Source: Candidatus Omnitrophota bacterium
GTDB taxonomy: Bacteria; Omnitrophota; Gorgyraeia; Gygaellales; Profunditerraquicolaceae
Assembly: GCA_041651115.1 (NCBI GenBank)
Contig: JBAZJY010000003.1
Coordinates: 194,524 to 258,523, forward strand
Reading direction: 5' to 3'
Length of the DNA: 64,000 bases
Positions 23,770-46,513 of this stretch are shown one piece after another (position 1 is the first letter of the stretch; every line of letters begins with the position of its first letter). The position numbers and the translations under genes are program-made. The notes under the pieces are model-generated. The model was given only the letters and a program-made list of their open reading frames with translations, was not told the DNA's origin and did no database searches.

Positions 23770-25671
23770 CTACGGGAGTATCCTCTTATAAGACAGGAAA
23801 CCGCTAAAGCCAAGCGCAGAAAGCGCGAGTATATTTAAAAGCGCATAACGGGGAAATTTCATTGTTACAACGTAGTTGCCGGAATCAGGGGCAAGAAACC
23901 CGGCTTGGCCGTCAACGTCAATAAGGCGGATCTCTTTATTCTTATAGTAAGCGCGCCAGGCTGGAAAGTAATTTGAACGCAACACTACTTTAGCGCCCTG
24001 TTTAACCCCGGATAAGATAATTTCTTTCGCATAAAAATCCTTATCAATTATTTCTGCGCTGCCATTATCATATACGACAGCGCTGCGGGTATCGGAATCC
24101 CTGACTTTAAAAATGATCCAATCCTCATCTTCCCATATTTTCTCAAAAACCCGGGGATTAACGGAAAAATATGCTTTTGACAACGCATCCCAGACAACCA
24201 GATACCTCACCCCCCACCGGCAAAATATCCTGTTTATGTCTTCGACAGCCCATTCGTTAATGGGTTTGCCCCGGAAAGACCCGCTTTCCAGGCTGTTGGC
24301 CCGCCACGGCGTATGGTGGTAGCCGTCGTGAAAATTGGAAAAGAACAACTTTCCGGTTTCCAGCTGCAGCAACGCCATCCAATGGGAATTAGGAATGACT
24401 ATTTTAGTCATATCGCCATGCTGGTTATTTTCCACCGCGATATAACGGCCTTCGAGCGTTTTGATCTTTTCTACCAGCGGCTGGTTGTAGATCTTCCCGG
24501 GCGCATAATGCATGATGCGCCTCGGCGCGACAAACGGATCATAAAACATAATGAATACGGCAGCTGTGATGATCGAAAAGACAAAACGCTTCTTCTCGTA
24601 GCCGATGATCAGGAAGCCGGTTAACAATATCGCCAGAAAAGAAATAGTAATAATATAGTATGCCCTGCTGGTAATCAGAAAAAAACCCCAGGTCTGGAAT
24701 ATTTTCAGGATTATGATCACAGCCAGCGTTGAGACGGCCGGTTTTATCCACGGCTTCTTATTGAGCATATACAGCGCAACAATTAAAACCCAAAACTGCT
24801 CATCCCATGCCCACGCCTTCAGGTTGAAAAACGAACGCAGCAGATCGAAAAACTGCCCGGAAACTACCGCAAGATAATCAGGCGGGATGATCTTATTGGG
24901 AAAATATAAATAATTATCGAGGATAAAATAACCGCGGTACTGCAACGCATAGGCCAAAAATGGCAGCGAAGTAACGAAAACTACCGCGGCCAAATAGCAC
25001 AATTGTTTAAAGTATTTTTTGTTTGGAGAAAATATGAAATCTATAAAGATAAATATCACGCCGTATAAAAACACGCTAAGATGGGTATAGAATAACAGCG
25101 TCATCACCAGCGCCAGCAGGAAAAACGAATACTTCTTGTTGTCTTTTAAACGCGCCGCCATGATCAAAGACAATATTATCAGATCTATGCCGATAAACGT
25201 GGAAACCGCGCCTGTCCTTAAGATCTGTTTAAAATAATGCGTGGCAAAAAACGCAGCCAGCGGCAGGGCGATCAGGGATTTATCGCGGTCCACGCGGAGA
25301 TTTATCTTTACGTAATAATAACAGAGCAGCGGCACAGCCAAAAACCCCAACAGTAATATTAGATGAAAGCCCTGCGGCAGGCCGATAAAAGAAACGGGCA
25401 GGATAAACAGGGAGAGATTAGTGCCGAACTCGGATGCAGTAAAATATCCTCCCAGGAACGAAGAATCCCAGCCAAAATACCCTCCCTGCTTAAGGATATC
25501 CAGCCCCTGTCTTGTCATCGTGAAAAACAACGGGTAATCGTCGGCAGCCGGATAAGAACCCCAGTCTTTCAGGGGAAAACAGATCAGGAAATAAACCAGC
25601 AGAAAGGAAAGACATGCGGCAAAAATAAAAAAGCGAGGGAACTGCTGCTTATCGGGAATTGCCATTTTCAT
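23770..25671 (-). CDS. Large polytopic membrane protein with a C-terminal soluble domain (YfhO/GT-C-like), hypothetical
   Basis: 633 aa; many TM helices followed by a soluble domain of about 200 aa. Confidence 0.4.
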   Translation of the reverse strand: MKMAIPDKQQFPRFFIFAACLSFLLVYFLICFPLKDWGSYPAADDYPLFFTMTRQGLDILKQGGYFGWDSSFLGGYFTASEFGTNLSLFILPVSFIGLPQGFHLILLLGFLAVPLLCYYYVKINLRVDRDKSLIALPLAAFFATHYFKQILRTGAVSTFIGIDLIILSLIMAARLKDNKKYSFFLLALVMTLLFYTHLSVFLYGVIFIFIDFIFSPNKKYFKQLCYLAAVVFVTSLPFLAYALQYRGYFILDNYLYFPNKIIPPDYLAVVSGQFFDLLRSFFNLKAWAWDEQFWVLIVALYMLNKKPWIKPAVSTLAVIIILKIFQTWGFFLITSRAYYIITISFLAILLTGFLIIGYEKKRFVFSIITAAVFIMFYDPFVAPRRIMHYAPGKIYNQPLVEKIKTLEGRYIAVENNQHGDMTKIVIPNSHWMALLQLETGKLFFSNFHDGYHHTPWRANSLESGSFRGKPINEWAVEDINRIFCRWGVRYLVVWDALSKAYFSVNPRVFEKIWEDEDWIIFKVRDSDTRSAVVYDNGSAEIIDKDFYAKEIILSGVKQGAKVVLRSNYFPAWRAYYKNKEIRLIDVDGQAGFLAPDSGNYVVTMKFPRYALLNILALSALGFSGFLSYKRILP

Positions 25672-26540
25672 ATTCGCGCCCTCTTATTACCGGCCGCTGC
25701 CTTCCCGGACGCTATTCTTGCCGTGATCATCCCCGCAAAAGAAGCGGCATTACCTAAAATCATAAGTAAAAATAAATAAGCTGCTTTCCAAAAAGAATAG
25801 GCGTTTTTTCTGCAGCAAGCAAGGTATATCGTAAAGAACTCCCGTATCGTTACGTTCTTGCGCTTCGTCGCCGTATTGTAATTACCATAAAAAAACAGCT
25901 TCTTTAAGCAGGTTACAGCGGCCTTGACTTCCATATGCCAGACCTTAGCGTTATCAAAATAGGCAACGCTGGCAGCGCCGTAATGCCTTGCGCACCTCTG
26001 GACCATTTCGGTATCGCCGGTAACCGGATGTTCCGAAAATTTACCCAGCTCTTTGAAAACAGAAGCGCGCACGGCCATATTATTGGTGTATCCGTAGTAT
26101 TTTTCGCTGATCCGATTAGTAAAGATGTGCCTGCTTATCTCGCGCTGAAACTCCTCAAATAATTTTGCCGCGGCAGAGCATCCAGGACGAAAATAGACGG
26201 CGCCTAAGGCGATAAGGACGCCGGGGTCTTCCATTGCCTTCCGGAACTGGCTTAGCCAATCGCCGGAAACGACGCAATCTGCGTCAGTAAAAGCAATGAT
26301 CTCCCCCCTTGCCATTTGCAACCCGCGGTTACGGGCAACATAAACATTGTGATTGTGTTCATTGAGCAGCTGTATTTCGCTGAATTGCCTGACAAAAGAA
26401 GATGAGCCGTCGCTGGAGTCATTATCAATAAATATCAACTCCCGTTCAGCCTCGGGAAAATCCTGGGCAAGCAGAGACCTGGCGCAATCCTTTATATATT
26501 TTCCCTCGTTAAGAAACGGAACAATCACAGAGAAAGTCAT
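25668..26540 (-). CDS. Family 2 glycosyltransferase (GT2); paralog of 31280..31963
   Basis: SVIVPFLNE...DADCV GT2 motifs; about 70 percent identity to its paralog. Confidence 0.8.
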   Translation of the reverse strand: MTFSVIVPFLNEGKYIKDCARSLLAQDFPEAERELIFIDNDSSDGSSSFVRQFSEIQLLNEHNHNVYVARNRGLQMARGEIIAFTDADCVVSGDWLSQFRKAMEDPGVLIALGAVYFRPGCSAAAKLFEEFQREISRHIFTNRISEKYYGYTNNMAVRASVFKELGKFSEHPVTGDTEMVQRCARHYGAASVAYFDNAKVWHMEVKAAVTCLKKLFFYGNYNTATKRKNVTIREFFTIYLACCRKNAYSFWKAAYLFLLMILGNAASFAGMITARIASGKAAAGNKRARI

Positions 26541-27649
26541 GGCTCAGGGTTCGGCTGATGCACGGACGTACAGGCCATATTGCAATACCAACGGTACCAT
26601 CTTGCTCCGCATCGGTAATAGGCCCTCCTCTTCCTTAGTTTACGGTATTTCCCATTATTCCAGATCGGCCGGAAATCGCCGCCTGAGTATTTGCCCATTT
26701 TTATCCTTCCCTGGCAGCAGCTCATGACTGTCCCGTCGGTCCTAATGACCGTCTCCATCCATGGGTAAGGGCATTTGCCGCGGTAGGGGTTATATTTCTC
26801 AAGATAAGGCATGGCGTAGTTATCTATAGGCAGGCTGAAATCATCCCAGTTGTTGTTTTTTTCCAGCTCCAGTTTTCCGACCATCTTCTGGCAGGAGAAC
26901 CTGATACGGTTGGCATCGGCAAAGGCCTTGGCTTCGGTGAATATCCGGTATGCCTTTTCGGCGATCGTAGAAAGATAGAATTGCCTGTCAAAGACAGCCA
27001 TATCGCAGTTATTAAGGAAAATATCGTTTATCCCGCGCTCTTTTATGAATTCCATGATTTTGAGGATTTCATCAATATTAAAAGGAGAACAGGTAACGGC
27101 AATGCGGATATGGAAACGCGGATTTTTTATCTTCTCCCGAAGGGCTACGTATTTGTCTATATTGGCCATGACCTTGGATAATTGCGCTCCCCGCCTGATC
27201 CTTTCATAAAGCGCCGGGGTTACCGCATCCAGCGAAATGTTCACAAAGAACCCCAACTCAACCAGCATCTTAATGATCTCTTCTTTAGTATTGACGGCGT
27301 TGGTAAATACCAGCGGCAAGAAGGCATAACCAGCCGATGTTTCGATCATCTTCTGGAAATTAACCGCCATGGCCGGCTCGCCGGTAAAAAAGAAATCCAC
27401 CTCCGAAGCATAAGGAAAGAGCGCTTTTTCTATTTGCCGAAACAGTTCAAGCGGCATGTCCTCTTTGCTCATGCGTCTCCTGGGGCGGCACATAATACAA
27501 TTTAAATCGCACCTCTGCGTGGGCTCGACAAAAAGCTTAAAAGGATAAGATTGGAGGATTTCCTTTTTCTGCCGCGCTTCTTCGATATTCAGGATGGCAT
27601 TTTTGTATGCGGCCGTATTTTTGAATTGTTCCGTAGTCAGCATTACCAT
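26537..27649 (-). CDS. Radical SAM/SPASM-domain protein. The start is ATG at 27649 (MVMLTTEQ), with GAAGG upstream.
   Basis: CDLNCIMC (CxxxCxxC) cluster; C-terminal Cys-rich SPASM-like region (CPYPWMETVIRTDGTVMSCCQG). The longer ORF-track start overlaps the ABC ATPase gene. Confidence 0.7.
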   Translation of the reverse strand: MVMLTTEQFKNTAAYKNAILNIEEARQKKEILQSYPFKLFVEPTQRCDLNCIMCRPRRRMSKEDMPLELFRQIEKALFPYASEVDFFFTGEPAMAVNFQKMIETSAGYAFLPLVFTNAVNTKEEIIKMLVELGFFVNISLDAVTPALYERIRRGAQLSKVMANIDKYVALREKIKNPRFHIRIAVTCSPFNIDEILKIMEFIKERGINDIFLNNCDMAVFDRQFYLSTIAEKAYRIFTEAKAFADANRIRFSCQKMVGKLELEKNNNWDDFSLPIDNYAMPYLEKYNPYRGKCPYPWMETVIRTDGTVMSCCQGRIKMGKYSGGDFRPIWNNGKYRKLRKRRAYYRCGARWYRWYCNMACTSVHQPNPEP

Positions 27650-27659
27650 CAAAAAACCT

Positions 27660-28409
27660 TCAGCTTTCCTGCAGATTATTAGATAATTGCTCGTACGCGG
27701 CGACCACCTCCGCAGCTTCTCCCTGCCGGCGAATACAGCCATTATCCAGCCAGATCGCACTGGTGCAGTATTTTTTAATAAATTCCATGTCGTGAGAGAC
27801 CGCAATGAGGGTCTTGCCGGAGTTGGCTATCTTATCAAAATATACCATGGATTTTTCCGCGGAGCTTTTATCAAGGAAACGCAGAGTTTCATCAAAAATC
27901 AATAGCTCGAATAGCCCCTCAAAAAAGACAGTCAGCGCCAACCACTGAATCTGCCCCATTGAAAGGAATTTAAGCGGGGAAAAACAAAAATCTTTCAGCG
28001 CCGCAACCTCCAGAATGGCATCAACCCTGCTTTTAAGGAAATTCCGGTCCATCCCATGCACCGCGCCAAAAAGATAAATATTATCCATGACCGACAGGTT
28101 CATGTTCAGGCCGATCCAGAAACTGAATACTACCGAAGGATCGCATTTGAATTCTACCTGGCCGCCGGTCTTTGAATAGATACCGGAAAGGATGCGCACA
28201 AGCGTGGTTTTCCCGGAACCGTTGGCGCCGATGATCGCCAGCCTCTCTCCCCTGTTAAGCGTAAAAGAAATATCGCGCAGCGCCCAGAACTCCCGGCAAC
28301 CATAGCCTTTTGACGCCAAATGCTTAAGCAGGCCAAAGGTAGTGAGCCTTTCTTTCCGGATGAAGAAACGTTTCGACAGATTATCAACTTTTAAACAAAT
28401 GTTACTCAT
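27660..28409 (-). CDS. ABC transporter ATP-binding protein (polysaccharide/teichoic-acid exporter, Wzt/TagH-like)
   Basis: Walker A GANGSGKTT, signature LSMGQ, Walker B LLIFDE. Confidence 0.8.
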   Translation of the reverse strand: MSNICLKVDNLSKRFFIRKERLTTFGLLKHLASKGYGCREFWALRDISFTLNRGERLAIIGANGSGKTTLVRILSGIYSKTGGQVEFKCDPSVVFSFWIGLNMNLSVMDNIYLFGAVHGMDRNFLKSRVDAILEVAALKDFCFSPLKFLSMGQIQWLALTVFFEGLFELLIFDETLRFLDKSSAEKSMVYFDKIANSGKTLIAVSHDMEFIKKYCTSAIWLDNGCIRRQGEAAEVVAAYEQLSNNLQES

Positions 28410-29209
28410 GCGTTCTCCATCGCCGCATCTTCAAAGAAAATAAATGCCCCGTAGCCTAAAAAGAAAAATAACAGGCCCAGCAATACACTGTGGCCGTAAA
28501 CAAGCATATCCGGGGCTGTTGTGCCGATAATCAGCTCACGGAAAGAAACCAAAAACGGCGTTAAGGGGTTCAGCCAATACACCATGGCCCGCGCCAGGGG
28601 CCGGATGCCCTCAAGGGTATAAAAGACCGGCGTTACAAAAAAGAACAGCCGCGAAAACATCATCCACATGTGTTCTACGTCGCGGATAAGACAATAAAAA
28701 GAAGCCAGGGCAAAACAGATACCCAGGACCATCCCGACGTAAAGGGCCAAAAGCGGAAAGAACAATAAAAAAGAGCTGAATTTAAAAAGCCCGCAAAAAA
28801 TACTGACGATCCAGATGATCCCCATCTCAATCAAAAATTTATAAAGATGTATCGCCATCCCGGAAAGTATCAGGTACTCCCTCGGAATGGTCGAGTTCAA
28901 GACAATCTCGCGGTTATCATAAAAAACCCGCAGCATATACGAAGGAGCAGTCACGAAAAAATTGGTGACAATGACGCCCAAAAGAAGATACAACGGGTAG
29001 AAACGCATGCTTTGACTGAAATGGATATTGAAAATGATATAAAGGACAAGAAATATCAGGCAGGGGCTGATCAGGCTCCAGGACAGGCCAAGGGCGGAAT
29101 TATAATCGTGCACTTTGAAGCTTGCGCGGGTCAACTCTACGAGCAGATAGCGGTTGTACCGGAATACCGTTTTATGCAGCCGCAGGAATAAATTCTTCAA
29201 AGCCTTCAT
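28406..29209 (-). CDS. ABC-2 type transporter permease (Wzm/TagG-like)
   Basis: 267 aa; 6 TM helices; translationally coupled to the ATPase gene. Confidence 0.75.
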   Translation of the reverse strand: MKALKNLFLRLHKTVFRYNRYLLVELTRASFKVHDYNSALGLSWSLISPCLIFLVLYIIFNIHFSQSMRFYPLYLLLGVIVTNFFVTAPSYMLRVFYDNREIVLNSTIPREYLILSGMAIHLYKFLIEMGIIWIVSIFCGLFKFSSFLLFFPLLALYVGMVLGICFALASFYCLIRDVEHMWMMFSRLFFFVTPVFYTLEGIRPLARAMVYWLNPLTPFLVSFRELIIGTTAPDMLVYGHSVLLGLLFFFLGYGAFIFFEDAAMENA

Positions 29210-30168
29210 GGCCGGCCTTCTCTCCTAAAGAAAAAATAAGAAAAAAATCCGCAGATTATGCCGATACCCATAACGACATGGTCAAAAAAGGTGACCACAT
29301 ACGAAGCAAGCGCAAAAATAACCCCTTTCTCCCGCTTGAGAAAAATAATGAAGTCCAAATTCAAGATGAGCCAGATGAAAAATAAGAACGACAACGGAGG
29401 CAGGACAATACCGGCTAAGATCAACTGCGCCAATATCACGCTTGCCAGCTGCCTTTTAGGAGAATGGGCATAGCCGACCCTTTTACTCAATAATTCTTTC
29501 CAGCCTTTATAACGGATGAAGATGTGCGCCCAGTCAAAAGGAATACGGAAATCATTCAGTATAAAAGAAAAGATATTATATTTTTTAAGATGCGCCACTT
29601 CCAGATCAGGCAAAAAAGCGATCTGTTTTCCGCAGGAAACAAGCTGCTGGCCTAAAGCAGTATCGTCGGCAATCTTCACAAGAGGCTCAAAAGCAACGAG
29701 CACTGCTTTCCGGGCCGCATAGATGGAGCCGTAGATAAAAGTCACTCTTTCGGGAAGCCGGCGAAAAATATAATTCATATAGAGATTCTTATACTGGCTG
29801 AAGAAACGGTTATCCGGACAGTCTTTTGAAAGCAGGCCCGTGACTACGTCTACTTCTTTGTGACTGTCAAAATACGCGTTAATTTTAAACAGGGTATCCG
29901 GCCGTATCAAAACATCGGAATCTACGTTAACAACGATCTCTCCCCTTGCCGCGTTAATGCCTGCCTGCCGCGCAGCGATCCGGCCGGCGTTATTAATAAG
30001 TTTGATCACGCGATCGGCATAAGGCCCGGCTATGGCCCTTGTCTCGTCACTGGAATTACAATCAACGACAATAACCTCATACTCTTTATAGCCGGAATTC
30101 CGTATATGTTCAAGGCATTCTTTTATGGTATTCCGGCTGTTATAAGTAGGGACAACCACTGAGAGCAT
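29206..30168 (-). CDS. GT2 glycosyltransferase with C-terminal TM helices; paralog of 32985..33956
   Basis: VVVPTYNS...VDSDV GT2 motifs; C-terminal hydrophobic helices; about 70 percent identity to its paralog. Confidence 0.8.
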   Translation of the reverse strand: MLSVVVPTYNSRNTIKECLEHIRNSGYKEYEVIVVDCNSSDETRAIAGPYADRVIKLINNAGRIAARQAGINAARGEIVVNVDSDVLIRPDTLFKINAYFDSHKEVDVVTGLLSKDCPDNRFFSQYKNLYMNYIFRRLPERVTFIYGSIYAARKAVLVAFEPLVKIADDTALGQQLVSCGKQIAFLPDLEVAHLKKYNIFSFILNDFRIPFDWAHIFIRYKGWKELLSKRVGYAHSPKRQLASVILAQLILAGIVLPPLSFLFFIWLILNLDFIIFLKREKGVIFALASYVVTFFDHVVMGIGIICGFFSYFFFRREGRP

Positions 30169-30362
30169 TATAGGCTTGCCTCTCTGCAGACGCGCCTGCG
30201 GCTTCTCCTAAACAACAACTCTGTTGCCCCGGCGATCATGCCGGAAATATATACAAGATTGCCAAGCAGCATAAGGAAAAAGAAAAAACATGCCTTCAGG
30301 AAAGGATAGTGTTTTTTCCGATAGCAATCGTAGGTCATTAACGCTTCGAACATCAGCCTCAT
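30168..30362 (-). CDS. Small single-TM hypothetical protein
   Basis: 64-aa ORF wedged between two GT2 genes. Confidence 0.3.
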   Translation of the reverse strand: MRLMFEALMTYDCYRKKHYPFLKACFFFFLMLLGNLVYISGMIAGATELLFRRSRRRVCREASL

Positions 30363-30371
30363 CTTACGGCC

Positions 30372-31271: not shown

Positions 31272-31279
31272 TTTCCGGT

Positions 31280-31963: not shown

Positions 31964-31969
31964 GGTTTT

Positions 31970-33956: not shown

Positions 33957-34132
33957 TGCGGTTCCATTGTTGGCGCTTCAGCTTTACGCAGGGATTCCGA
34001 CGATTATGCAGAAAATTATACTTTATTTAGCCTGCAAATTCAATAAGTATTGTTTGCGGCACATTTTCCTTGATTTTGCCCGGATTATTATATATAGTCA
34101 TTTAGGTAAGTCCGCAGGCCACAAGGAGCATA

Positions 34133-35182
34133 ATGCAATACAATTTTTGGCGCTTCCATCCGATCACGAAATTATTCTATTCCAGAAGACACACTCTAAG
34201 CGTACCGCCAAGCAGATTGATGTTTTCCTTAACCGGAAGATGCAACCTGCGCTGCCGGCACTGCCCAAGATCCAGTCTTCATGATCTCAACGAAAGCGAT
34301 TCGTCAAAAGAGCTGATTGATTACGTGGTTGAAAAGATCCTGCCGCATTGCAAATACTTGAGAATAGGCGGAAATACTTTGGGCGAACCGCTGCTATCCG
34401 AAAATTTTGATTATTTTTTCTCATCCATTGAAAAAAATAAGCCCAGGGAAGTCCATCTGGTTACCAATCTTACGCTCCTTGATGAAAAAAAGGCCGAAAC
34501 CCTAGTTAAGTATGTTGATAATCTTGAGGTCAGCGTTGAAGGAAGCCAAACGGCCTATTCACAGATACGTAATTTCAGTTGGCAGAAGCTCCTGGAAAAT
34601 ATCAAGCTTCTGCAAAAATACAGAGAAAAACATAAAGACAGCAAGCTAAGGGCCACTTTGCTTATCTGCACGATGTTAAGTAACCTTGAAAGCCTGATGG
34701 GCCTTTTTGACCTTAAGGATATCGGCGTTGATAAACTGGCTTTCCGCGAATTTGTAGCTTATGATAAAGATAAGCAGGCAGAATGCCTGTGGCGGAATCC
34801 GGAAAGAGTTAACGCATATATTAAAAAGTTTGAAAAAAGATCAAAAGAAACAGGCATGTGTATAGATATCAAGTTTAAAAATAACTATCCTGACAAAAAA
34901 CCGCACAAAATACATAGCCGTAAGCCGGGATCTGATAAATGCTACTTCCCATGGTCCTGCATTTCAATTGATAATACCGGGAGCATTTCATGTTGTTGTA
35001 ACAATAGCCTAGAACTTGGTAGAATAACCACATATGAAGAAGGCCTTTTCGGTTTTTGGAATAATAATAATTTTATTGCCCTGCGCAAATCCGTAAATAC
35101 CGCAGAACCGTGGCCGATATGTCTTGAGTGCGAAAGAAAAGCCATGCCGGAAATGGATAATAATGGTCAGACGCCTTCTTAA
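34133..35182 (+). CDS. Radical SAM/SPASM-domain protein
   Basis: AAGGAG 5 nt upstream of the ATG; CNLRCRHC cluster; C-terminal CYFPWSCISIDNTGSISCCCNN and CLECE cysteine-rich region. Confidence 0.75.
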   Translation: MQYNFWRFHPITKLFYSRRHTLSVPPSRLMFSLTGRCNLRCRHCPRSSLHDLNESDSSKELIDYVVEKILPHCKYLRIGGNTLGEPLLSENFDYFFSSIEKNKPREVHLVTNLTLLDEKKAETLVKYVDNLEVSVEGSQTAYSQIRNFSWQKLLENIKLLQKYREKHKDSKLRATLLICTMLSNLESLMGLFDLKDIGVDKLAFREFVAYDKDKQAECLWRNPERVNAYIKKFEKRSKETGMCIDIKFKNNYPDKKPHKIHSRKPGSDKCYFPWSCISIDNTGSISCCCNNSLELGRITTYEEGLFGFWNNNNFIALRKSVNTAEPWPICLECERKAMPEMDNNGQTPS

Positions 35183-36158
35183 AGCGCTGAATGAACGGGC
35201 TTACAAGCTGTTTGGAGAACTTGCTTGGTATAAAACACTAAGAAAGTTTTATTACTGCGGTATTAGATCCTGCGTTAAACGACGGAACAGCTCTTTTATT
35301 TTTTTAAACGGCCGTCAGCTGTCTGAAAAAAAACAGCGGCTCATGGAACATAACAAAATATGGAAAAAGGAACTGACACACCTCGCAATATATAAGCTTA
35401 AGAACAACGCTAGGGAAACCGTGGTAGTTAACCTTAAGGGGTCCGATTCATTCAAATTGGATGATGTTTTGTTTTGTGAATTGTTTGCATCCCGTGATCT
35501 TAAAATAGACTACAGTTTTTTTAAAGACGAGCTTCTTAGATGCATATATCCTGCCGAAAGCAGAGAGTATAGATATTACAAATACTGCGAAAGCCTTTTG
35601 AACTTTTATTTGAATAATTACGCTGCCAAAAAAGATGATTGCTCTACCGCGCAATTTTCCCTGGATATGTATAAATATGCGATCAATCATATCCGGGGCA
35701 ATTCGGTCTTAGACGCGGGCAGTTGCGCGGCAATTTTCCCAATATTGCTAAAACTAAAAATGCCCGCTAACGAAGTAACAGCCAGCGATTGCAATTGCGG
35801 ATACTTTGATGATTTCGCAGTGCAATATTGTAAGCAAAACGGCATAAACATTAAATTCAAGAAATTAGACATCCTATCCCCTTCCACGGAGGAGAGCTAC
35901 GATACCGTGACCAGCATCCACACCCTGGAACATTTTGAAGAAAAGGATACTGCCGCGGTGATCAACAACCTGCTTAAGATAACGAATAAAAGACTGATCA
36001 TGATCTTTCCCTTTGAAGATTTTATCACCATAAAAGACCACCGTCAGAAACTAAACCATAAAAAGATCAATATGATAATCAAGAACTTGCGCTTTCCCGC
36101 CAAAATAGAAAAAGTAAGCGCGCGGAATTACGCTTTGGCAATAGACACTGATAGATGA
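35124..36158 (+). CDS. Class I SAM-dependent methyltransferase-like protein (start possibly at 35163)
   Basis: VLDAGSCAA and TVTSIHTLEHFEE motifs. Confidence 0.45.
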   Translation: MSAKEKPCRKWIIMVRRLLKALNERAYKLFGELAWYKTLRKFYYCGIRSCVKRRNSSFIFLNGRQLSEKKQRLMEHNKIWKKELTHLAIYKLKNNARETVVVNLKGSDSFKLDDVLFCELFASRDLKIDYSFFKDELLRCIYPAESREYRYYKYCESLLNFYLNNYAAKKDDCSTAQFSLDMYKYAINHIRGNSVLDAGSCAAIFPILLKLKMPANEVTASDCNCGYFDDFAVQYCKQNGINIKFKKLDILSPSTEESYDTVTSIHTLEHFEEKDTAAVINNLLKITNKRLIMIFPFEDFITIKDHRQKLNHKKINMIIKNLRFPAKIEKVSARNYALAIDTDR

Positions 36159-38101
36159 AAACAAACCCAGATACATACCGCGCAGATATATCCGTTGTCA
36201 TTCCTACCTGCAATAGGCCGGTAGGCTTGCGCCGGCTGCTGGATAGCCTGTCTAAACAAACTATCCGGGTCAAAGAAATAATCGTTGTTGATAACGGAGA
36301 GCAGGGCAAAATCACTCCCCTCATTTCAAGCTTTTCCGGATCGCTAAACATAAGATATTTTTTTGAGCCATCTAAAGGCATCTCTATTGTCCGCAACAAA
36401 GGCATATCTGTTTCAACCTGCCCTATCATAGCCTTTCTGGATGATGATTGCGTTGCCCAGCCGCAGTGGCTGGAAGCCATAGACCGGGCATTTCAAGAAA
36501 ACCGGGATATTCAGATTTTGCAAGGCAATACAACCCAAACATCAACGACAAAAAACTTATATGTTGATATTTTTCAGGCTGACTACAAAGAATATATCCG
36601 AAATATGCTCTCTAAGACACCCGGATACGTAAGCATACTTAATACGCAAAATTTTGCCGTAAAACGGGAGCTAATCACGAGGTTCCGCATGCCTTTTGAA
36701 GAAAGGCTCGCTACAAACGAAGACCTTGAGCTATATTGGAAGCTCAATAAAATGGGTATCAGGGTCGCGTATTCAGAAGAAATGAAGGCAGACCATTACG
36801 CCTGCAATCGTTTTCTGCCTTTTCTGCGCGTGTGGTATAGATACGGCTTTGGTAAATCCCAAATTAAACGGCTGCATCCGGATTTTTCAGATGAATATTA
36901 TATCGACAATACCGCTTCTATATTTTCCTGCCTGCGTATGCTGTATCGCGAAATATTCCGGCCGCGGCACAAGATGGCCAATGCCATTATGTATTACCCT
37001 GTCTTAATCGCGCAAAAATCGTTCTTTATCGCCGGCATGTACATGGGAAGGAAAATGCCTGTCCCGGCATATAAGCGGCCCGCTACGCCTCCGGAAATGG
37101 TGCTGTTCGTGACAAATGAATGTAACCTCTCCTGTCGCCACTGTTTTTATCAATCCGCGCTTGCGCAAGACAAGCGGGAAATAAAAGCTTCCGATACAAT
37201 AAAGATCTTACGATCATTAACCCGTGACTTGGAAACAGTTTGCCTTGGCGGAGGCGAACCGTTCATTAATAAAGAGCTGGCTGAAATATGCAAGGCCTTT
37301 GCGCAAAATATTTATTTAAAAGACCTGTATATCGTAAGCAACGGCTTTGAAACCAACCGGATAATTGAAACAACCGAAGATATGCTCAAAAATTCGTTCT
37401 TTAACATACACCTGCGCATCTCCCTTGACGGCATGGCAGATAGCCACAACCGCATCAGGGGTAATGAACTGGCTTTTTCAAACGCAGTTGCCACGATCAA
37501 GGCGCTAAAGGACCTGCAGCGCAGATACGAGAAATTACAGCCAAGTATACAAACGATAATCAGCCAATTAAATATCGGGGAATTGACCCAATTGGCGCAA
37601 TTTGTCAAAAAAGAAATTGGAGTAATGCATGTATTTGATATCATCCGGGGCGCTACCATGTTTTACAAAAATGGCCTCTTTATAAACGAATCCTATGGTC
37701 CGCCAGATACAAGCCAACTGCTTACGCATAAACAGCTAAAATATGCCGCAAAGACAGTAAAAAAGTTCTACCGGGAATACGCCCAAGACAATACCATGAA
37801 ACCGGATGAAGCAAAATATCAGGAAACTCTCTTCAGCATAAGCAGTTACCAGGCGCTGAAAAGAAAACCGATAGTCAGGTGTTCAGCCGGAAAATCCATC
37901 GCGGTGATTTTTCCCAATTACGATGTTTCTCTTTGCGAGGCAGCCCGGCCAATTGGGAACCTTGCGGACCATAGCTTTGACTTTACGAAAATACAAACTA
38001 AGTTTTCCACGCCAGAAATAAAAAACCTAAGGGATTGCTGTTATTGCACCAATCCCTGCTATATTTCTTCAAGTATCCAAAACATGCGCGGGAGAAGATA
38101 A
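36155..38101 (+). CDS. Fusion protein with an N-terminal GT2 glycosyltransferase and a C-terminal radical SAM/SPASM domain
   Basis: N-terminus has ISVVIPTCNRP...FLDDDC; the middle has FVTNECNLSCRHC (CxxxCxxC); the C-terminus has cysteines at CSAGKS, CEAA and CCYCTNPCY. Confidence 0.7.
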   Translation: MKTNPDTYRADISVVIPTCNRPVGLRRLLDSLSKQTIRVKEIIVVDNGEQGKITPLISSFSGSLNIRYFFEPSKGISIVRNKGISVSTCPIIAFLDDDCVAQPQWLEAIDRAFQENRDIQILQGNTTQTSTTKNLYVDIFQADYKEYIRNMLSKTPGYVSILNTQNFAVKRELITRFRMPFEERLATNEDLELYWKLNKMGIRVAYSEEMKADHYACNRFLPFLRVWYRYGFGKSQIKRLHPDFSDEYYIDNTASIFSCLRMLYREIFRPRHKMANAIMYYPVLIAQKSFFIAGMYMGRKMPVPAYKRPATPPEMVLFVTNECNLSCRHCFYQSALAQDKREIKASDTIKILRSLTRDLETVCLGGGEPFINKELAEICKAFAQNIYLKDLYIVSNGFETNRIIETTEDMLKNSFFNIHLRISLDGMADSHNRIRGNELAFSNAVATIKALKDLQRRYEKLQPSIQTIISQLNIGELTQLAQFVKKEIGVMHVFDIIRGATMFYKNGLFINESYGPPDTSQLLTHKQLKYAAKTVKKFYREYAQDNTMKPDEAKYQETLFSISSYQALKRKPIVRCSAGKSIAVIFPNYDVSLCEAARPIGNLADHSFDFTKIQTKFSTPEIKNLRDCCYCTNPCYISSSIQNMRGRR

Positions 38102-38229
38102 AAATGGCTATTTTAACTATCAGGGCACGCAAGTTCCCCTATGTCCTTGCCTTAATCATGTTCTTAAGCAACCTGTATTTCCTCCTTTTCAAAAAAAATA
38201 AGATCATAAAAATGAAATAGGCTCCGGCT

Positions 38230-39804
38230 ATGCGAAAAACCCTTGAATATTTTTGCGATTATTGCTCGAAAAATAAATTCCTTAGCCCTCTCTTTGCCGC
38301 GTATTACCGATTAGCCGTCAAATCGCTGGCACTTGCCTTAAAAATGCATAATTTTAAACAAATAGTAAAAGTCTATTTGCGCCATAGGGATTGGATCTTG
38401 GGCGTCAGCGACATAGACCTCATTTTCATTATGAAATCTTTGGAACCGGCGGAAGATGCGAGTTCTTTCAAGAAGCTATGGAAAACCTATATTTTTTTGC
38501 GTAAGCTGTTTCCCATGCTCTGCGACACAGAAGAAATCCGGTTTATTCCCGAAGAACAGATCAGAGAACACCCCCTCCGGGTAAACGGCGAAACGGCATT
38601 GCTGCTGTCTCCGCATAAATGGGAATGCATCTATTCCAAAAAAGGCAGTATCTCCCCTGCGTCTTTTTCCCTATCTCATCCGGAAAAGCCTGCCATACCG
38701 CATACCCGTTTCCTGCATTTTAACTTTTACGGTTATATGCAACGGATGATCCTCTCCGGGCAGGATATTCCGGCATTAAAGTTTTGCCGGTTACGCAAAA
38801 ATATGATGAAAATATTGCAGCACTTATTCTATTTAAAGAATAGCAAGGCAATCGGGATGGATGAATTGACAAAGCAGCTCTCCGGACAGGAAAAAACCTG
38901 CAAAGACGCGGATGAAATAGCGGCGAGAGATATATTTAAGCTCCTGGAAGAAGTTCCCGCAGGCGCTGCAGCCCGCCGCAATGCACTGCTTTACGCCTTT
39001 CGAAAACTGATCCTATTTATCCAGGATGTCCACGACCGCCATTATGACCTCGGAAGCGGAACTCATCCCGCCCCCCATACCCATGATGGCAGCTGGATGG
39101 GAAAGCCGCTGAAAGATTTTATTGAAGAAGGCAACAGGTTATTCGGCGAGCGTTTCCGGGTTAATGCCATAAAACCGATCTCTGAACTTACGCAGCGGGC
39201 ATTCCTTTCTATCGACGAAAATACCGACCGGGATCTTTTTGAAAAATTGATCCTGTTCTCAAGCCGGCATTATCAAATGCTCCTCCGGTCCGGAACGTCC
39301 CTTTATGTTGTTACGGATAAGATCCTTACATCGCAATTCTACGCCCTATGGAGCCCCCATGCGCTGGAAGCGCATATATTGCTGGCAAGGGATTCCTTTA
39401 ATCCCGGACAAATGTTAAAAATCAAATTACCTCCGGAGGAATGGACTTTACGGAAAATCAGGAATTCGCTTGCCATTTTTGAGGAATACTATCTTCCCCT
39501 TCTGGCATCTCCGTATGCCGGAGGAAACGGCATAGATTTCTGCAAGATATACGAAAGGCCGGAAGTAGAAATGTTGTTCCATTATTTTTATTACCTGAAA
39601 GACCGGGATGTCTATTTTCGCGACCTTAAACAGGCAAAGGGCGACTCCGCTGAAATACTCTGCCTGACTGCTGCAAAATATGCCGATGAAATCGGATTAA
39701 ACCAGTGGCATCCGTATGAATATGTAACGGCATATCCCTATCTTAAAAAAATGATCCGCCTTGTTGACCGGATGACTTGCGAAAGAATCGGCCGGAGATG
39801 TTAA
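38230..39804 (+). CDS. Hypothetical protein with an N-terminal nucleotidyltransferase (Pol-beta-like) motif
   Basis: ILGVSDIDLIFI matches the GS...DxD pattern; 524 aa. Confidence 0.4.
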   Translation: MRKTLEYFCDYCSKNKFLSPLFAAYYRLAVKSLALALKMHNFKQIVKVYLRHRDWILGVSDIDLIFIMKSLEPAEDASSFKKLWKTYIFLRKLFPMLCDTEEIRFIPEEQIREHPLRVNGETALLLSPHKWECIYSKKGSISPASFSLSHPEKPAIPHTRFLHFNFYGYMQRMILSGQDIPALKFCRLRKNMMKILQHLFYLKNSKAIGMDELTKQLSGQEKTCKDADEIAARDIFKLLEEVPAGAAARRNALLYAFRKLILFIQDVHDRHYDLGSGTHPAPHTHDGSWMGKPLKDFIEEGNRLFGERFRVNAIKPISELTQRAFLSIDENTDRDLFEKLILFSSRHYQMLLRSGTSLYVVTDKILTSQFYALWSPHALEAHILLARDSFNPGQMLKIKLPPEEWTLRKIRNSLAIFEEYYLPLLASPYAGGNGIDFCKIYERPEVEMLFHYFYYLKDRDVYFRDLKQAKGDSAEILCLTAAKYADEIGLNQWHPYEYVTAYPYLKKMIRLVDRMTCERIGRRC

Positions 39805-39808
39805 ATAT

Positions 39809-40975
39809 ATGAAAAAAATATTATTCCTTACAAATTTGCTCCCGGTACCCATGGATACCGGAGGAAAAATCCGGGATTACCATATTGTAGAATATCTTTC
39901 CCGGAAGCATGAGGTATGGTTTGCCGGTTTCAGGGAGAAGAATCTCAAAGAAAACGAGACTTCGCTGCCGTTTATCCCGCGGGAAAGATGCCTTACCACG
40001 GAACCGGAAGACCTTGATATCCGCGCTTTTTTACGTAAGCACGACGTACCTTACTGGTGCCTTGGATATTACTCAGAGAAGATGGAAAAAATACTGGATA
40101 CCGTTATAGAAAAGAACCGCTTCGACTATATCCATATCTCGCACAGCTACATGGCCCAGTATGTCACAAAATACAAAGGTGTCATCGGGTTAGTGGACCA
40201 CCAGAACGTAAAAACCATCCTCTACCATAGTGCCTGTGCAGGAACAAACAACCCCCTGAGAAAAATAAATTATTCCGCCGAATACTATAAATGGTATAAA
40301 TACGAACGGGAGGTACTGCGTAATTTTGAATTCCACCTTGCCTGTTCGCCGGTCGAACAAAAAGCAATAGAAAATTTTGTGCATCGCCCGGTCAGGCTTC
40401 TGCCGTCAGGCGTGGATACTGAACGCTTCTATGAGAAAAAAGGAATGGATACCGGAGCTAATCTGCTTTTTACCGGAAGCTTTGATTATTTTCCCAACCA
40501 TGAAGCAGCCGTATTCTTCTGCAAAAAAATCCTGCCGCTTATCCGTAAGGCTGTCCCGAACGTCGTCTTTCAGGTAGTCGGACGCCAGCCGCGTGAAGCG
40601 CTTGAGAAATTGATCAGAAAAACACCGAATACCTGGTTTTCCTGCAATGTCAGGGATATACGGCCGTTTTATTATCAATCAGCCGTAGCTGTCGTGCCGC
40701 TCTCGGTCGGCGCAGGGACAAGGCTTAAAATACCGGAGGCAATGGCAACCGGCCTTCCGGTAGTCAGTACTTCAAAAGGCTGCGAAGGATTAGGATTGGC
40801 TAATGGAGAAGGGATTATTATTGCCGATGATCCGGCACAATTTGCAGAAGCAGTAATTTCACTGCTGAAAGATAGCAAAGCGCGCGAAGGTTTGAGCCGG
40901 AAAGCCGCAGTAATCAGCAGGGAGCGTTTTTCCTGGAATGAGGTATTGAAACCGCTGGATGCGATCTATCTTTAG
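39809..40975 (+). CDS. Family 4 glycosyltransferase (GT4, GT-B fold)
   Basis: EAMATGLPVVST motif. Confidence 0.8.
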   Translation: MKKILFLTNLLPVPMDTGGKIRDYHIVEYLSRKHEVWFAGFREKNLKENETSLPFIPRERCLTTEPEDLDIRAFLRKHDVPYWCLGYYSEKMEKILDTVIEKNRFDYIHISHSYMAQYVTKYKGVIGLVDHQNVKTILYHSACAGTNNPLRKINYSAEYYKWYKYEREVLRNFEFHLACSPVEQKAIENFVHRPVRLLPSGVDTERFYEKKGMDTGANLLFTGSFDYFPNHEAAVFFCKKILPLIRKAVPNVVFQVVGRQPREALEKLIRKTPNTWFSCNVRDIRPFYYQSAVAVVPLSVGAGTRLKIPEAMATGLPVVSTSKGCEGLGLANGEGIIIADDPAQFAEAVISLLKDSKAREGLSRKAAVISRERFSWNEVLKPLDAIYL

Positions 40976-44768: not shown

Positions 44769-44775
44769 AAAATTA

Positions 44776-45267: not shown

Positions 45268-45288
45268 GCTTTAGCAATTTAAGGAGCA

Positions 45289-46511: not shown

Positions 46512-46513
46512 AT

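Follow-up and report, generated by a model that had tools for sequence, protein, structure and literature searches.

What are three radical SAM enzymes, one of them fused to a glycosyltransferase, doing in what resembles a gene cluster for a surface sugar polymer? We asked this of a 64,000-nucleotide stretch of contig JBAZJY010000003.1 from a Candidatus Omnitrophota bacterium (here called the window). Our analysis favors the view, to which we assign a probability of roughly 0.55, that this bacterium uses the genes at positions 22174-40975 to assemble a glycan or glycoconjugate of its cell envelope. The locus consists of two divergent operons flanked by tRNA-Leu and yajQ (Table 1). A sequence-only reading had started it at 25668, which is too short, as two multi-pass membrane genes upstream are translationally coupled; the 633-aa gene overlaps that for GT2 B-prime by 4 nt, so both belong to the same operon. 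The 3' end of tRNA-Leu is repeated in tandem, and the final ∼30 codons of the 531-aa gene run across this repeat. Between the operons lie promoter-like matches in both directions (minus, 34043-34015, 10/12; plus, 34070-34098, 9/12), in numbers not above chance. Domain content (Pfam, NCBIfam) bears out the proposal that three radical SAM genes sit amid six glycosyltransferases (five GT2, the fusion included, and one GT4) and a Wzm/Wzt exporter, and the anticipated methyltransferase, P-loop protein and nucleotidyltransferase-motif protein ('GVSDIDL') are all present. At 43705-44445, 3 kb from the locus, lies a gene for a PEP-CTERM protein.

Table 1. Features of the locus, in window coordinates.
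Feature	Coordinates	Strand	Description	Basis
531-aa membrane protein	22174..23769	-	multi-pass, ∼9-10 hydrophobic segments, soluble C-terminal part	hydropathy
633-aa membrane protein	23770..25671	-	multi-pass, ∼10-11 hydrophobic segments, ∼250-aa soluble C-terminal domain	hydropathy
GT2 B-prime	25668..26540	-	290 aa, one C-terminal hydrophobic segment	PF00535 100 bits
rSAM1	26537..27649	-	radical SAM/SPASM, 370 aa	PF04055 52.4 bits, PF13186 30.6 bits
Wzt-type ABC exporter ATPase	27660..28409	-	249 aa	PF00005
Wzm-type ABC-2 permease	28406..29209	-	267 aa, ∼6 hydrophobic segments	PF01061 32.8 bits
GT2 A-prime	29206..30168	-	320 aa, two C-terminal TM helices, GtrB/ArnC/DPMS-like shape	PF00535 103 bits
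GT2-B-type remnant	30168..30362	-	64 codons of C-terminal membrane tail	BLASTP
GT2 C	30372..31271	-	299 aa, between truncated GT2-B body and its probable leftover tail	PF00535 88 bits
GT2 B	31280..31963	-	truncated, 227 aa (paralog 290 aa)	PF00535 113 bits
Predicted kinase	31970..32992	-	P-loop protein, 340 aa, PEP-carboxykinase/HPr-kinase fold	Walker A 'GMGGGKTT'
GT2 A	32985..33956	-	323 aa, two C-terminal TM helices; first minus-operon gene	PF00535 110 bits
Divergent intergenic region	33957..34132		176 bp, between both operons	gene layout
rSAM2	34133..35182	+	radical SAM, 349 aa, shortened SPASM-like tail; first plus-operon gene	PF04055 58.3 bits
Methyltransferase	35163..36158	+	SAM-dependent, ∼331 aa, N-terminal ∼150 aa without assignment	PF13649, PF08241
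GT2-radical SAM fusion	36155..38101	+	648 aa	PF00535 residues 13-139, PF04055 319-455
NTase-like protein	38230..39804	+	524 aa, N-terminal minimal pol-beta/MNT-type domain, ∼400-aa C-terminal part without assignment	motif, profile
GT4	39809..40975	+	388 aa; last locus gene, abuts convergent yajQ/DUF520	PF13692, PF00534

All three radical SAM genes lie where the sequence-only reading had placed them, each with an intact CxxxCxxC motif and a PF04055 score above the gathering cutoff of 29.5. In the fusion protein (PF04055, 54.5 bits), a GT2 region (residues ∼9-240) is followed by a low-confidence linker (246-314) and then by the radical SAM core with its Cys-rich C-terminal domain (315-640), the cluster motif being C323/C327/C330. 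Is this fusion an assembly artefact? The ORF is single and uninterrupted and the architecture recurs on independent contigs, showing that the fusion is genuine. Among the 120 homologs listed, about 30 (22-67% identity, independent contigs) combine a GT2 family with PF04055, and members were found in Omnitrophota, Elusimicrobiota and Wolfebacteria. The 12 closest homologs align end to end (alignment A1), with a divergent C-terminus in one; conservation extends to the DxD motif, CxxxCxxC, GGEPF and the C-terminal set of Cys residues, and from these both halves look competent. An Elusimicrobiales protein (P0025) aligns across both halves, and NCBI holds an identical protein labelled 'MAG: glycosyltransferase [Candidatus Omnitrophota bacterium]'. 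These data show that proteins joining GT2 and radical SAM in this way form a conserved family. In another protein (P0042), the same radical SAM clade is joined to a PF04230 polysaccharide pyruvyl transferase (35% identity over the core). The fusion to GT2, and to pyruvyl transferase in relatives, argues that the substrate is carbohydrate-linked.

The neighborhood of the fusion is also conserved. A core set of rSAM2, the PEPCK/HprK-fold kinase, the NTase-like protein and the GT4, usually with the fusion, recurs in three other contigs, and rSAM2 is found together with the GT4, kinase and NTase in four loci. The closest contig (fusion 67% and kinase 78% identical) shares the divergent layout and has three radical SAM genes, in the order GT2/PMT_2/kinase/GT2-A facing rSAM2/MTase/fusion/NTase-like/GT4; it carries a gene at the same position as our methyltransferase and, additionally, a 381-aa radical SAM protein and a second PMT. 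Locus L001 is a compact five-gene block (fusion-NTase-GT4-kinase-rSAM2), and L172 has rSAM2-kinase-MTase...Wzt-Wzm-NTase-GT4 with PMT_2 and cobalamin-type radical SAM genes. Close homologs of rSAM2 number only ∼7 (45-53% identity), with orthologs in L001 (48%), L171 (53%) and L172 (45%); GT4 orthologs are found in L001 (41%), L172 (40%) and L165 (28%), and NTase-like orthologs in L001 and L172. Glycosyltransferase genes abound in all six loci that carry a close homolog of the fusion, and the module is also seen in loci of LPS-like or O-antigen-like type, together with GT9, PIG-L, PMT_2 and cobalamin-type radical SAM genes. The glycan context proposed from the sequence alone is thus borne out by these loci, the pyruvyl-transferase fusion, the glycan-type Wzm/Wzt pair and the GT-C-like membrane proteins.

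Among the stand-alone GT2 proteins, A-prime and A are paralogs (69% protein identity), and B-prime is a full-length paralog of B (71% protein and 75% DNA identity). The alignment of B to B-prime ends at residue 225, and the 64-codon remnant matches residues 242-272 of B-prime (52% identity, E=1e-8), suggesting that the remnant is probably the tail cut off from GT2 B. No NCBIfam cutoff was reached by B-prime; the best match of GT2 C is MftF (89 bits versus a cutoff of 280), and A-prime weakly matches ArnC, AglJ and DPM-type models. Homologs of A-prime adjoin the kinase in L170 and the fusion in L163. The GT2 A gene and the kinase gene share 8 nt, and this pair is also present in L170 and the closest relative.

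Which kind of pathway do the exporter and membrane proteins point to? The Wzt-like ATPase best matches galactan-export Wzt/RfbE (140 bits) and TagH (120 bits), both under cutoff, and the sole NCBIfam match of the permease is the galactan Wzm/RfbD model. As in Wzm/Wzt loci of the O-antigen or teichoic acid type, the pair is clustered with several genes of the GT2 and GT4 families and with one for a methyltransferase. In contrast to those loci, this one lacks an initiating phosphoglycosyltransferase (WecA/WbaP type), which also weighs against our main reading, as well as NDP-sugar tailoring genes (epimerase, dehydratase or aminotransferase), its Wzt has no C-terminal carbohydrate-binding extension, and the three radical SAM proteins, the PEPCK-fold kinase and the NTase-like protein are nonstandard parts. 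The 531-aa and 633-aa membrane proteins carry an 'EGDDGF' motif after the first hydrophobic segment and an 'AADDY' motif in the first loop, respectively, and neither has a Pfam, NCBIfam or PDB sequence family match. We regard both as candidate GT-C-type transferases, an assignment that for the 531-aa protein draws on its position and on the PMT_2 proteins at equivalent places in relatives. The resulting arrangement resembles GtrB-GtrC, ArnC-ArnD-ArnT and Ppm1-Pmt modules in that the GT2-A proteins (∼320 aa) have two C-terminal TM helices and the large membrane proteins occupy the place of the relatives' PMT_2/PMT. It differs in that these proteins match no GT-C family, no GtrA or ArnE/F-type flippase was identified, and the modifying enzyme is a radical SAM domain fused to a GT2 without TM helices.

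Such an arrangement could also serve protein O-glycosylation. In that case the GT-C proteins would move a radical-modified sugar or short glycan from its lipid carrier onto Ser/Thr residues of proteins that are secreted or anchored through PEP-CTERM. We consider this acceptor rather unlikely. PMT/PMT_2 GT-C enzymes (protein O-mannosyltransferase/ArnT type) do occur in the module of the closest relative, L167 and L172, the GT2-A enzymes are shaped like polyprenyl-phosphate sugar synthases, and the PEP-CTERM gene is near. The best family of the GT4, near full length, is the PEP-CTERM/XrtA-system glycosyltransferase TIGR03087, but its score of 223 bits is under the cutoff of 317. The membrane proteins of the window match neither PMT_2 nor another family; PMT_2 also spans ArnT-like lipid or glycan transferases, which leaves the acceptor unspecified, and Wzm/Wzt suggests polymer export. 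O-glycosylation is in any case a subvariant of the main explanation, from which it differs in the final acceptor alone.

The predicted kinase belongs to a distinct, unnamed family, and over the whole protein its fold is nearer PEPCK than HprK; members elsewhere also stand alone or adjoin unrelated genes, which counts against our main reading. The NTase-like protein has no Pfam match of its own, and only 33 representatives were found at E<1e-3 among 1.84 billion. Its 'W-I-L-G-x-S-D-I-D-L-I' motif is invariant across three orthologs, PF01909 is matched by 3 of 26 family members (best E=2e-7), and a profile search reached the AF0614 NTase at E=0.014. For the methyltransferase, whose ORF opens at TTG 35124, ATG 35163 is the more probable start.

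These same genes can be read as making a glycosylated RiPP-like or small-peptide product. Here, a ribosomal peptide would be cross-linked or epimerised by the radical SAM/SPASM enzymes and phospho-glycosylated on Ser by the HprK-fold kinase and NTase, in the manner of paeninodin and pseudomycoidin. As for mycofactocin, the glycosyltransferases would lengthen the glycan and the methyltransferase would methylate it, and the ABC transporter would export the product. An HprK homolog with an NTase is a documented lasso-peptide tailoring pair (PMC8498205), although the window kinase is of a distinct, more PEPCK-like family. The best NCBIfam matches of the fusion's GT2 half and of the methyltransferase are MftF and MftM (mycofactocin oligosaccharide methyltransferase), but the scores are far under cutoff (105 versus 280 bits and 71 versus 200 bits). 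A further hint, which also counts against our main reading, comes from a relative: in L165, whose fusion is 39% identical, a lasso-type PqqD-like protein (59 bits) occurs alongside an HprK-related kinase, a sulfotransferase and an ABC exporter of fused type. However, no window gene has a Pfam match to PqqD/RRE (PF05402), and a six-frame phmmer search of the window with the L165 PqqD gave E>1 throughout. The CxxxCxxC motifs of rSAM1 and rSAM2 begin at residues 47 and 37, which leaves no space for an N-terminal RRE in the stand-alone enzymes. A search of small ORFs across eight related loci revealed no conserved one, every match being a shadow ORF inside a gene. The window differs from the cassettes of SkfB, anSME, PqqE/PqqD, mycofactocin MftC/MftF/MftM, SynChlorMet ScmC-F and the lasso peptides tailored by an HprK-related kinase and NTase in that it has neither RRE/PqqD nor precursor peptide nor peptidase, and all its scores to peptide-modifying SPASM/twitch maturases are far under curated cutoffs. 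The exporter is of the Wzm/Wzt glycan type, and the module recurs in LPS-like/O-antigen-like loci. For this window, the RiPP-like product that had been proposed as an alternative is therefore improbable; because of L165, it keeps some probability for the wider family.

What chemistry might the radical SAM proteins perform? The two stand-alone enzymes are distant from each other (21% identity, E=2e-14). All three had been described as SPASM type, which holds for rSAM1 (PF13186 cutoff, 21.5 bits) but not for the others by this model, rSAM2 falling slightly short at 19.3 bits; by inspection, the full canonical 7-Cys SPASM motif is in none of the three. Beyond the cluster motif (C47-x3-C51-x2-C54), rSAM1 has C-terminal Cys at 293, 311, 312, 347, 356 and 360, and rSAM2 (C37/C41/C44) has further Cys at 270, 276, 287-289, 330 and 333. 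In NCBIfam, no cutoff was reached by any of the three (best, 87-105 bits versus 280-400; for rSAM1, W_rSAM_matur at 87 versus 380). Classification as known sugar-modifying enzymes, which would have spoken against the sequence-only proposal, is seen for none of the three in this HMM comparison. Because they fall below every curated family cutoff, analogy is the sole basis for arguing their chemistry. Among PDB sequences, BtrN is the only or top match of rSAM1 (E=2.5e-5) and rSAM2 (E=2e-5), a resemblance to a sugar-acting enzyme that speaks for our main reading. Similarity to BtrN, BlsE and DesII (twitch, sugar-acting) is confined to the cluster-binding region and allows no claim of family membership; those enzymes are stand-alone, rather than fused to a glycosyltransferase, and belong to antibiotic pathways, where their substrates are small and soluble (aminocyclitol or nucleoside/NDP-sugar).

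That the radical SAM enzymes instead target lipids (Tes/GrsA-like) or a metallo-cofactor (maturases), being only loosely co-located with envelope-biogenesis genes, is highly improbable: the top NCBIfam matches of rSAM1 and rSAM2 are indeed a 'tungsten cofactor oxidoreductase radical SAM maturase' and a 'putative metalloenzyme maturase' (87-90 bits), but these scores are 4-10 times under the cutoffs, the GT2 and pyruvyl transferase fusions favor a carbohydrate-linked substrate, rSAM2 keeps company with the GT4, kinase and NTase in its four loci, and this locus contains neither a tungsten/molybdenum enzyme nor lipid-synthesis genes.

The best reading of these data is a polyprenyl-phosphate-linked envelope glycan or glycoconjugate pathway in which radical SAM enzymes modify the sugars and the kinase, NTase and methyltransferase decorate them. 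Polyprenyl-phosphate sugars would come from the GT2-A enzymes and be transferred outside the cytoplasmic membrane by the two GT-C-like membrane proteins, and the lipid-linked chain would be exported by Wzm/Wzt. Because the locus has no NDP-sugar tailoring genes, unusual sugars would arise after transfer. It is reasonable to infer that the radical chemistry would act on a sugar or on an intermediate linked to lipid. The GT2 half of the fusion may add a sugar, and the radical SAM half may abstract a hydrogen from that or a neighboring sugar of the lipid-linked intermediate. A sugar already on its lipid carrier would then be changed after transfer, following the logic of ArnD, which acts on undecaprenyl-phosphate-Ara4FN. 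The outcome could be oxidation, epimerisation, decarboxylation or deoxygenation, by analogy with BtrN, BlsE and DesII, and rSAM1 and rSAM2 would take further radical steps. The kinase is predicted to phosphorylate a hydroxyl and the NTase-like enzyme to build on that phosphate, and the methyltransferase would O-methylate a sugar; the products may be decorations or a chain-end cap. The combination of a predicted kinase and a methyltransferase recalls a WbdD-type chain-end cap, whose kinase is eukaryotic type rather than PEPCK-fold. A precedent for the kinase and NTase pair is pseudomycoidin, in which the two make a phospho-linked hexose (PMC8498205).

Taken together, three uncharacterised radical SAM enzymes, one of them fused to a glycosyltransferase, within a probable surface sugar-polymer cluster may point to unexplored radical sugar chemistry.

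The glycosyltransferase (GT) and radical SAM genes lie in a tightly packed block (22174-40975) in which ORF calling and Pfam/NCBIfam scans placed 17 genes and one gene remnant. The block is bounded on the left by tRNA-Leu(CAG) (22112-22195) and on the right by a convergent DUF520/yajQ gene (40976-41470), and it is organized as two divergent operons with a 176-bp intergenic region (33957-34132) between them. The sequence-only reading had placed a glycan locus at 25668-40975. The glycan locus stands, with its left limit moved to take in two large membrane proteins that had been left out and that a 4-nt overlap (25668-25671) couples translationally to the rest. A scan for promoters and terminators gave counts in the locus that were not above chance, leaving placement in the divergent intergenic region only.

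Features of the two divergent operons, in operon order
Feature	Position	Strand	Place
GT2-A	32985-33956	-	minus-strand operon, 1
P-loop protein (predicted kinase)	31970-32992	-	minus-strand operon, 2
Truncated GT2-B	31280-31963	-	minus-strand operon, 3
GT2-C	30372-31271	-	minus-strand operon, 4
64-codon GT2 tail remnant	30168-30362	-	minus-strand operon, 5
GT2-A'	29206-30168	-	minus-strand operon, 6
Wzm	28406-29209	-	minus-strand operon, 7
Wzt	27660-28409	-	minus-strand operon, 8
rSAM1	26537-27649	-	minus-strand operon, 9
GT2-B'	25668-26540	-	minus-strand operon, 10
Large multi-pass membrane protein	23770-25671	-	minus-strand operon, 11
Large multi-pass membrane protein	22174-23769	-	minus-strand operon, 12
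rSAM2	34133-35182	+	plus-strand operon, 1
Methyltransferase	about 35163-36158	+	plus-strand operon, 2
GT2-radical SAM fusion	36155-38101	+	plus-strand operon, 3
524-aa NTase-motif protein	38230-39804	+	plus-strand operon, 4
GT4	39809-40975	+	plus-strand operon, 5

Two pairs of GT2 paralogs are found in the minus-strand operon: GT2-A and GT2-A' (69% protein and 75% DNA identity) and GT2-B and GT2-B' (71% and 75%). They mark a segmental duplication inside the locus (25668-33956). GT2-B stops at residue ~225, and its missing membrane tail persists as the 64-codon remnant, from which it is separated by a different GT2 gene, GT2-C. GC content falls to 0.40 in two stretches of the window, 8-12 kb and 34-36 kb, the second of which corresponds to rSAM2 and the methyltransferase. 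At the left boundary, a perfect 30-bp tandem repeat (22182-22275; 3.1 copies, 100% identity) begins with the last ~14 nt of tRNA-Leu(CAG), CTCTCTCCGCACCA, and the inverted complement GAGAGAGGGA is also present inside each unit. The ORF of a 531-aa membrane protein, which overlaps the tRNA gene on the opposite strand, runs through the repeat and so ends in three copies of 'RVPLSKFGAE'. The repeat may be a scar left by repeated integration at the tRNA, or else an array of terminators; of the flanking genes scanned to the left and right of the locus, none was noted as an integrase.

Elsewhere in the window, a giant ORF (1-7482, minus strand; at least 2,494 aa, extending past the window start) combines a GT2 domain with glucoamylase-like and GH94 domains (558 bits for the GH94 supersandwich domain), as cyclic beta-1,2-glucan synthases do. 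A tmRNA gene (20146-20550, minus strand; Rfam, 144.6 bits), whose predicted tag peptide, ANTSNRLAGTMVSPLTARPAFIPAFALN, is unusually long at 28 residues, adjoins SmpB (20586-21047). The window has eight scattered tRNA genes (His, Arg, Pro, Leu, three Ser and Lys), including those at 10654-13269, 44681-47460 and 51471-51543.

Do the three radical SAM proteins belong to a described family? All three have the intact CxxxCxxC motif that had been reported for them (at residue 47 in rSAM1, 37 in rSAM2 and 323 in the fusion), and their PF04055 scores (52.4, 58.3 and 54.5 bits, respectively) exceed the Pfam gathering cutoff of 29.5, placing them in the superfamily. They are distantly related to one another, with rSAM1 and rSAM2 21% identical (E=2e-14) and the fusion core and rSAM2 23% identical. 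The label "SPASM-type" held in part. We took a SPASM domain (PF13186/TIGR04085-type) to be the seven-cysteine pattern CX9-15GX4C...CX2CX5CX3C...C for two auxiliary clusters together with a score above cutoff. rSAM1 passed PF13186 (30.6 bits), rSAM2 narrowly failed (19.3 versus 21.5), and the fusion gave no match. Inspection of the C-terminal cysteines revealed the first half of the SPASM pattern (Cx12-17...C) in all three proteins and non-canonical second halves (CX8CX3C, CX2C and CCxCxxxC). These patterns suggest that rSAM1, rSAM2 and the radical SAM half of the fusion are more twitch-like or partial SPASM proteins.

The best NCBIfam matches of rSAM1 and rSAM2 were to a tungsten-cofactor maturase model (87.4 and 90.5 bits, each versus a cutoff of 380), and that of the fusion's radical SAM half was TIGR04133 (67.7 versus 425). 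None of the three proteins reached any of the named NCBIfam radical SAM families (ArsS, viperin, MoaA, NirJ, AhbC/D, HpnH, Tes, W-cofactor maturase and others). With no protein at a curated cutoff in this HMM classification, none was confidently assigned to known sugar-modifying enzymes, and the sequence-only reading survives this check. The nearest solved structure by sequence for both rSAM1 and rSAM2 was the aminocyclitol dehydrogenase BtrN (E~2e-5, over the first ~100 residues only), and by predicted structure the radical SAM half of the fusion was about equally close to several enzymes.

We then asked about the fusion itself. NCBI lists the exact protein, encoded on a 357-kb contig, under the name 'MAG: glycosyltransferase [Candidatus Omnitrophota bacterium]'. 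Of 120 listed homologs, ~30 have PF04055 together with a GT2 Pfam family, at 22 to 67% identity. The 12 closest listed homologs align end to end; one of them (P0011) has a divergent C-terminus, and two (P0012 and P0013) are without a precomputed GT2 Pfam match. CxxxCxxC and the SAM-binding motif GGEPF are invariant in the alignment, as are the C-terminal cysteines C594 and C631, and C576, C629 and C635 are nearly so. The GT2 DxD motif is kept in most aligned homologs and is degenerate in P0010, P0012 and P0013. An Elusimicrobiales protein aligns across both halves, and a Wolfebacteria contig gave a full-length match at 26% identity. Because the architecture is conserved, a frameshift or assembly artefact is ruled out, and the physical joining of a GT2 domain to a radical SAM domain that had been read from the sequence is confirmed. 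The AF2 model (pLDDT 73.9) consists of two well-defined domains connected by a low-confidence linker (residues 246 to 314), and the C-terminal part of the protein is predicted to adopt a fold that superposes on those of twitch/SPASM enzymes.

In another homolog (P0042), the fusion partner of this radical SAM clade is a polysaccharide pyruvyl-transferase domain. A further multi-domain family on this clade (P0086, P0093-P0097 and P0109; ~1,040 aa) combines SAM-methyltransferase domains with a radical SAM domain related to that of the fusion and DUF5714 (PF18978). Pattern-based scans of genome and metagenome contigs with the fusion alignment returned, among the matches listed, no close loci and only distant radical SAM genes (23 to 31% identity), most of which matched no more than the radical SAM half. 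The generic radical SAM motif prevailed in the back-translated patterns; because the scans yielded only such generic genes, close relatives were obtained individually.

The 340-aa P-loop protein had no Pfam or NCBIfam match, even at E=10, matched neither ScmC nor Hpr_kinase_C (Pfam, E=10), and gave marginal matches only in a PDB sequence/profile search. Its family comprises more than 110 sequence clusters, all "hypothetical." The AF2 model is confident (pLDDT 89.7), and Walker A residues G154, G155 and K156 and an S-x-D motif are invariant in the family alignment. We read this PEPCK/HprK-fold protein as a predicted kinase. The family of the 524-aa nucleotidyltransferase (NTase)-like protein is very small: a search among 1.84 billion sequences gave 33 representatives at E<1e-3. 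An invariant 'WILGxSDIDLI' lies in the N-terminal ~100 residues of the protein, after which ~400 unassigned residues follow. The protein itself had no Pfam match, even at E=10, and 3 of 26 family members, all distant, match PF01909 (best E=2e-7). Against the PDB, the best match of the family profile was the AF0614 minimal nucleotidyltransferase (E=0.014), and a three-sequence alignment found nothing.

The methyltransferase was nearest to MftM, a sugar O-methyltransferase, at 71 bits, far below the cutoff of 200, and its N-terminus had no Pfam match at E=10. The GT4 was nearest to TIGR03087, a PEP-CTERM/XrtA-associated glycosyltransferase (223 bits versus 317). A secreted 246-aa protein ending in a PEP-CTERM sorting motif (PF07589, 26 bits) is encoded 3 kb from the GT4 gene (43705-44445, minus strand). 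Each of the two large membrane proteins has ~10 hydrophobic segments, the first of them followed by an acidic "DD" motif, and a soluble C-terminal part; neither had a Pfam match (E=10) or a PDB match by sequence. The Wzm/Wzt exporter proposed earlier was borne out by PF01061 and PF00005 on adjacent, overlapping genes near glycosyltransferases, for which the best NCBIfam models were Wzm, Wzt and TagH, all below equivalog cutoffs. The initiating phosphoglycosyltransferase families (WecA/WbaP type; PF00953 and PF02397) matched 0 of 18 locus genes. It is common for an initiating transferase gene to lie away from its glycan locus, and here too it may be encoded outside.

Which of these genes travel together? 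On the closest contig (SRR15532677, 16.9 kb), the fusion is 67% and the kinase 78% identical, and the divergent layout is the same: GT2, a PMT_2-family GT-C, the kinase and GT2-A facing rSAM2, the methyltransferase, the fusion, a 527-aa protein and a GT4. Also on this contig are another PMT-family protein and, beside the 296-aa GT2, one more radical SAM gene (381 aa), which may be an ortholog of rSAM1. In relatives, PMT_2/PMT proteins hold the positions equivalent to those of the two large membrane proteins. One related locus (L001) has a compact block of the fusion, NTase-like, GT4, kinase and rSAM2 genes. Another (L172) has rSAM2, the kinase, the methyltransferase, a cobalamin-type radical SAM gene, Wzt, Wzm, the NTase-like gene and a GT4; a GT2-like gene there overlaps the start of rSAM2, and a PMT_2 gene lies upstream. 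The rSAM2 ortholog in L171 lies among GT9, PIG-L, GT4 and methyltransferase genes. Fusion homologs 37 to 40% identical occur in L002, L163 and L165 with sulfotransferases, a fused ABC exporter, GT2s and GT4s, the kinase being present in L002 and L165; a 50% identical one (L167) occurs with Wzy_C, PMT_2 and Wzt/Wzm.

The kinase family is wider than this module, with members beside a GT2-A homolog (L170), beside CapB/CapC (L168), and alone (L169). On the second of these, another Omnitrophota contig (L168, 10001-15551), the kinase homolog is 43% identical and adjoins CapB/CapC-type poly-gamma-glutamate synthesis genes; nearby are Mem_trans and SmpB genes in synteny with 20586-22000 of the window. 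The chromosomal site may be a variable surface-polymer locus.

From the gene content, conserved fusion, conserved module and folds documented here, we propose that the locus builds a modified glycan or glycoconjugate, a model to which, as a whole, we assign a probability of roughly 0.55. GtrB/ArnC-shaped GT2-A enzymes would make polyprenyl-phosphate sugars for use by the GT-C-like membrane proteins outside the membrane, and the lipid-linked chain would be exported by Wzm/Wzt. Because the locus has no NDP-sugar tailoring enzymes, unusual sugar residues would be generated after transfer: the GT2 half of the fusion would add a sugar and the radical SAM half would abstract a hydrogen from the same sugar or a neighbor, with rSAM1 and rSAM2 contributing further radical steps. 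The kinase would phosphorylate a hydroxyl, the NTase-like enzyme would build on that phosphate, and the methyltransferase would O-methylate. Any single type of radical SAM reaction is improbable when taken by itself. The main weaknesses of the model are that the fusion has no TM segment, that its GT2 half resembles chain-elongating GT2s more closely than it does polyprenyl-phosphate sugar synthases, that the membrane proteins match no family, and that the initiating transferase is absent from the locus.

Could the acceptor instead be a peptide or protein that is glycosylated? For the wider family this is possible. L165, whose fusion homolog is 39% identical, encodes at 7573-9134 a lasso-type PqqD-like protein (NF033536, 59 bits versus 80) and, directly downstream, an HprK-related kinase with weak TIGR04352/TIGR04355 and faint Pfam ScmC matches, and an HprK homolog paired with a nucleotidyltransferase is documented to phospho-glycosylate a lasso peptide (PMC8498205). 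A sulfotransferase and a fused ABC exporter are encoded in L165 as well; no lasso cyclase, protease or evident precursor gene was found there. For the window, a peptide acceptor is not supported. No gene of the locus matches PF05402 (PqqD/RRE), with unassigned proteins searched to E=10, and the L165 PqqD gave E>1 everywhere against six-frame translations of the window (tblastn, phmmer). Neither rSAM1 nor rSAM2 is extended at its N-terminus, and there is no peptidase in the window.

The sequence-only reading had left room for a precursor peptide among the short ORFs. When ORFs of 18 to 130 codons from the window and seven related loci were compared all against all, the only matches were shadow ORFs inside genes, and no conserved intergenic small ORF was found. 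The locus has only two intergenic ORFs, the GT2 tail remnant and one of 38 codons (38104-38220) that is AT-rich and without relatives, and the gaps in L165 (7101-7573) and L001 (16699-17293) contain a pseudogene fragment of a GT2 N-terminus and small, unrelated membrane proteins, none of which is conserved. Membership in the mycofactocin system (MftF, 105 bits versus 280; MftM, 71 versus 200; no MftB/PqqD and no MftC-level match) or in SynChlorMet (ScmE, 64 bits for the fusion and 49 for rSAM2 versus 400; no ScmC match by the kinase and no ScmD) is rejected, given scores that fall far short of the cutoffs and the absence of partner genes.

Within the glycan model, the fusion may represent a new class of carbohydrate-directed radical SAM enzymes that couple glycosyl transfer to radical modification of a lipid-linked sugar, whether by oxidation, by epimerisation, by decarboxylation or by forming a C-C or C-O bond. 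The fusion, rSAM2, the PEPCK-fold kinase, the NTase-like protein and the GT4 would together constitute a conserved module, not described before, with which Omnitrophota and other uncultured phyla would make an envelope glycan modified by radical chemistry and decorated with phosphate. We advance this combined proposal tentatively, with the odds somewhat against it.

Polysaccharide loci and SPASM/twitch radical SAM enzymes are each of a known kind. In the literature that could be searched, we found neither a GT2-radical SAM fusion nor this module described; on radical SAM/SPASM enzymes in polysaccharide loci, it gave only incidental mentions of radical SAM genes in glycan clusters. An Omnitrophota preprint describes co-occurrence of GT1 and radical SAM Pfam domains. 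The fusion, rSAM2 and NTase-like families are rare and unannotated, and the kinase family is sizeable and unnamed. The known cases of radical SAM chemistry on carbohydrates are a handful of enzymes from antibiotic pathways, acting on small soluble substrates, and to our knowledge such chemistry in cell-envelope glycan assembly is essentially unexplored.

The locus is a well-supported lead for new radical carbohydrate chemistry, drawn entirely by inference from MAG sequence. A conserved covalent fusion of a glycosyltransferase to a radical SAM enzyme is a strong genomic hint of substrate, since the radical enzyme most likely acts on the transferase's product. The fusion also offers enzymologists a tractable entry point, being expressible and testable with defined sugar donors, and the PEPCK-fold kinase family and the very rare NTase-like family would gain functional context. 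If the enzymes act on peptides, the locus would encode a glycopeptide pathway of an unusual kind, lacking a recognisable RRE, and that too would be new. Omnitrophota are uncultured and often ultra-small or host-associated, and unusual surface glycans may matter for their cell-cell interaction.
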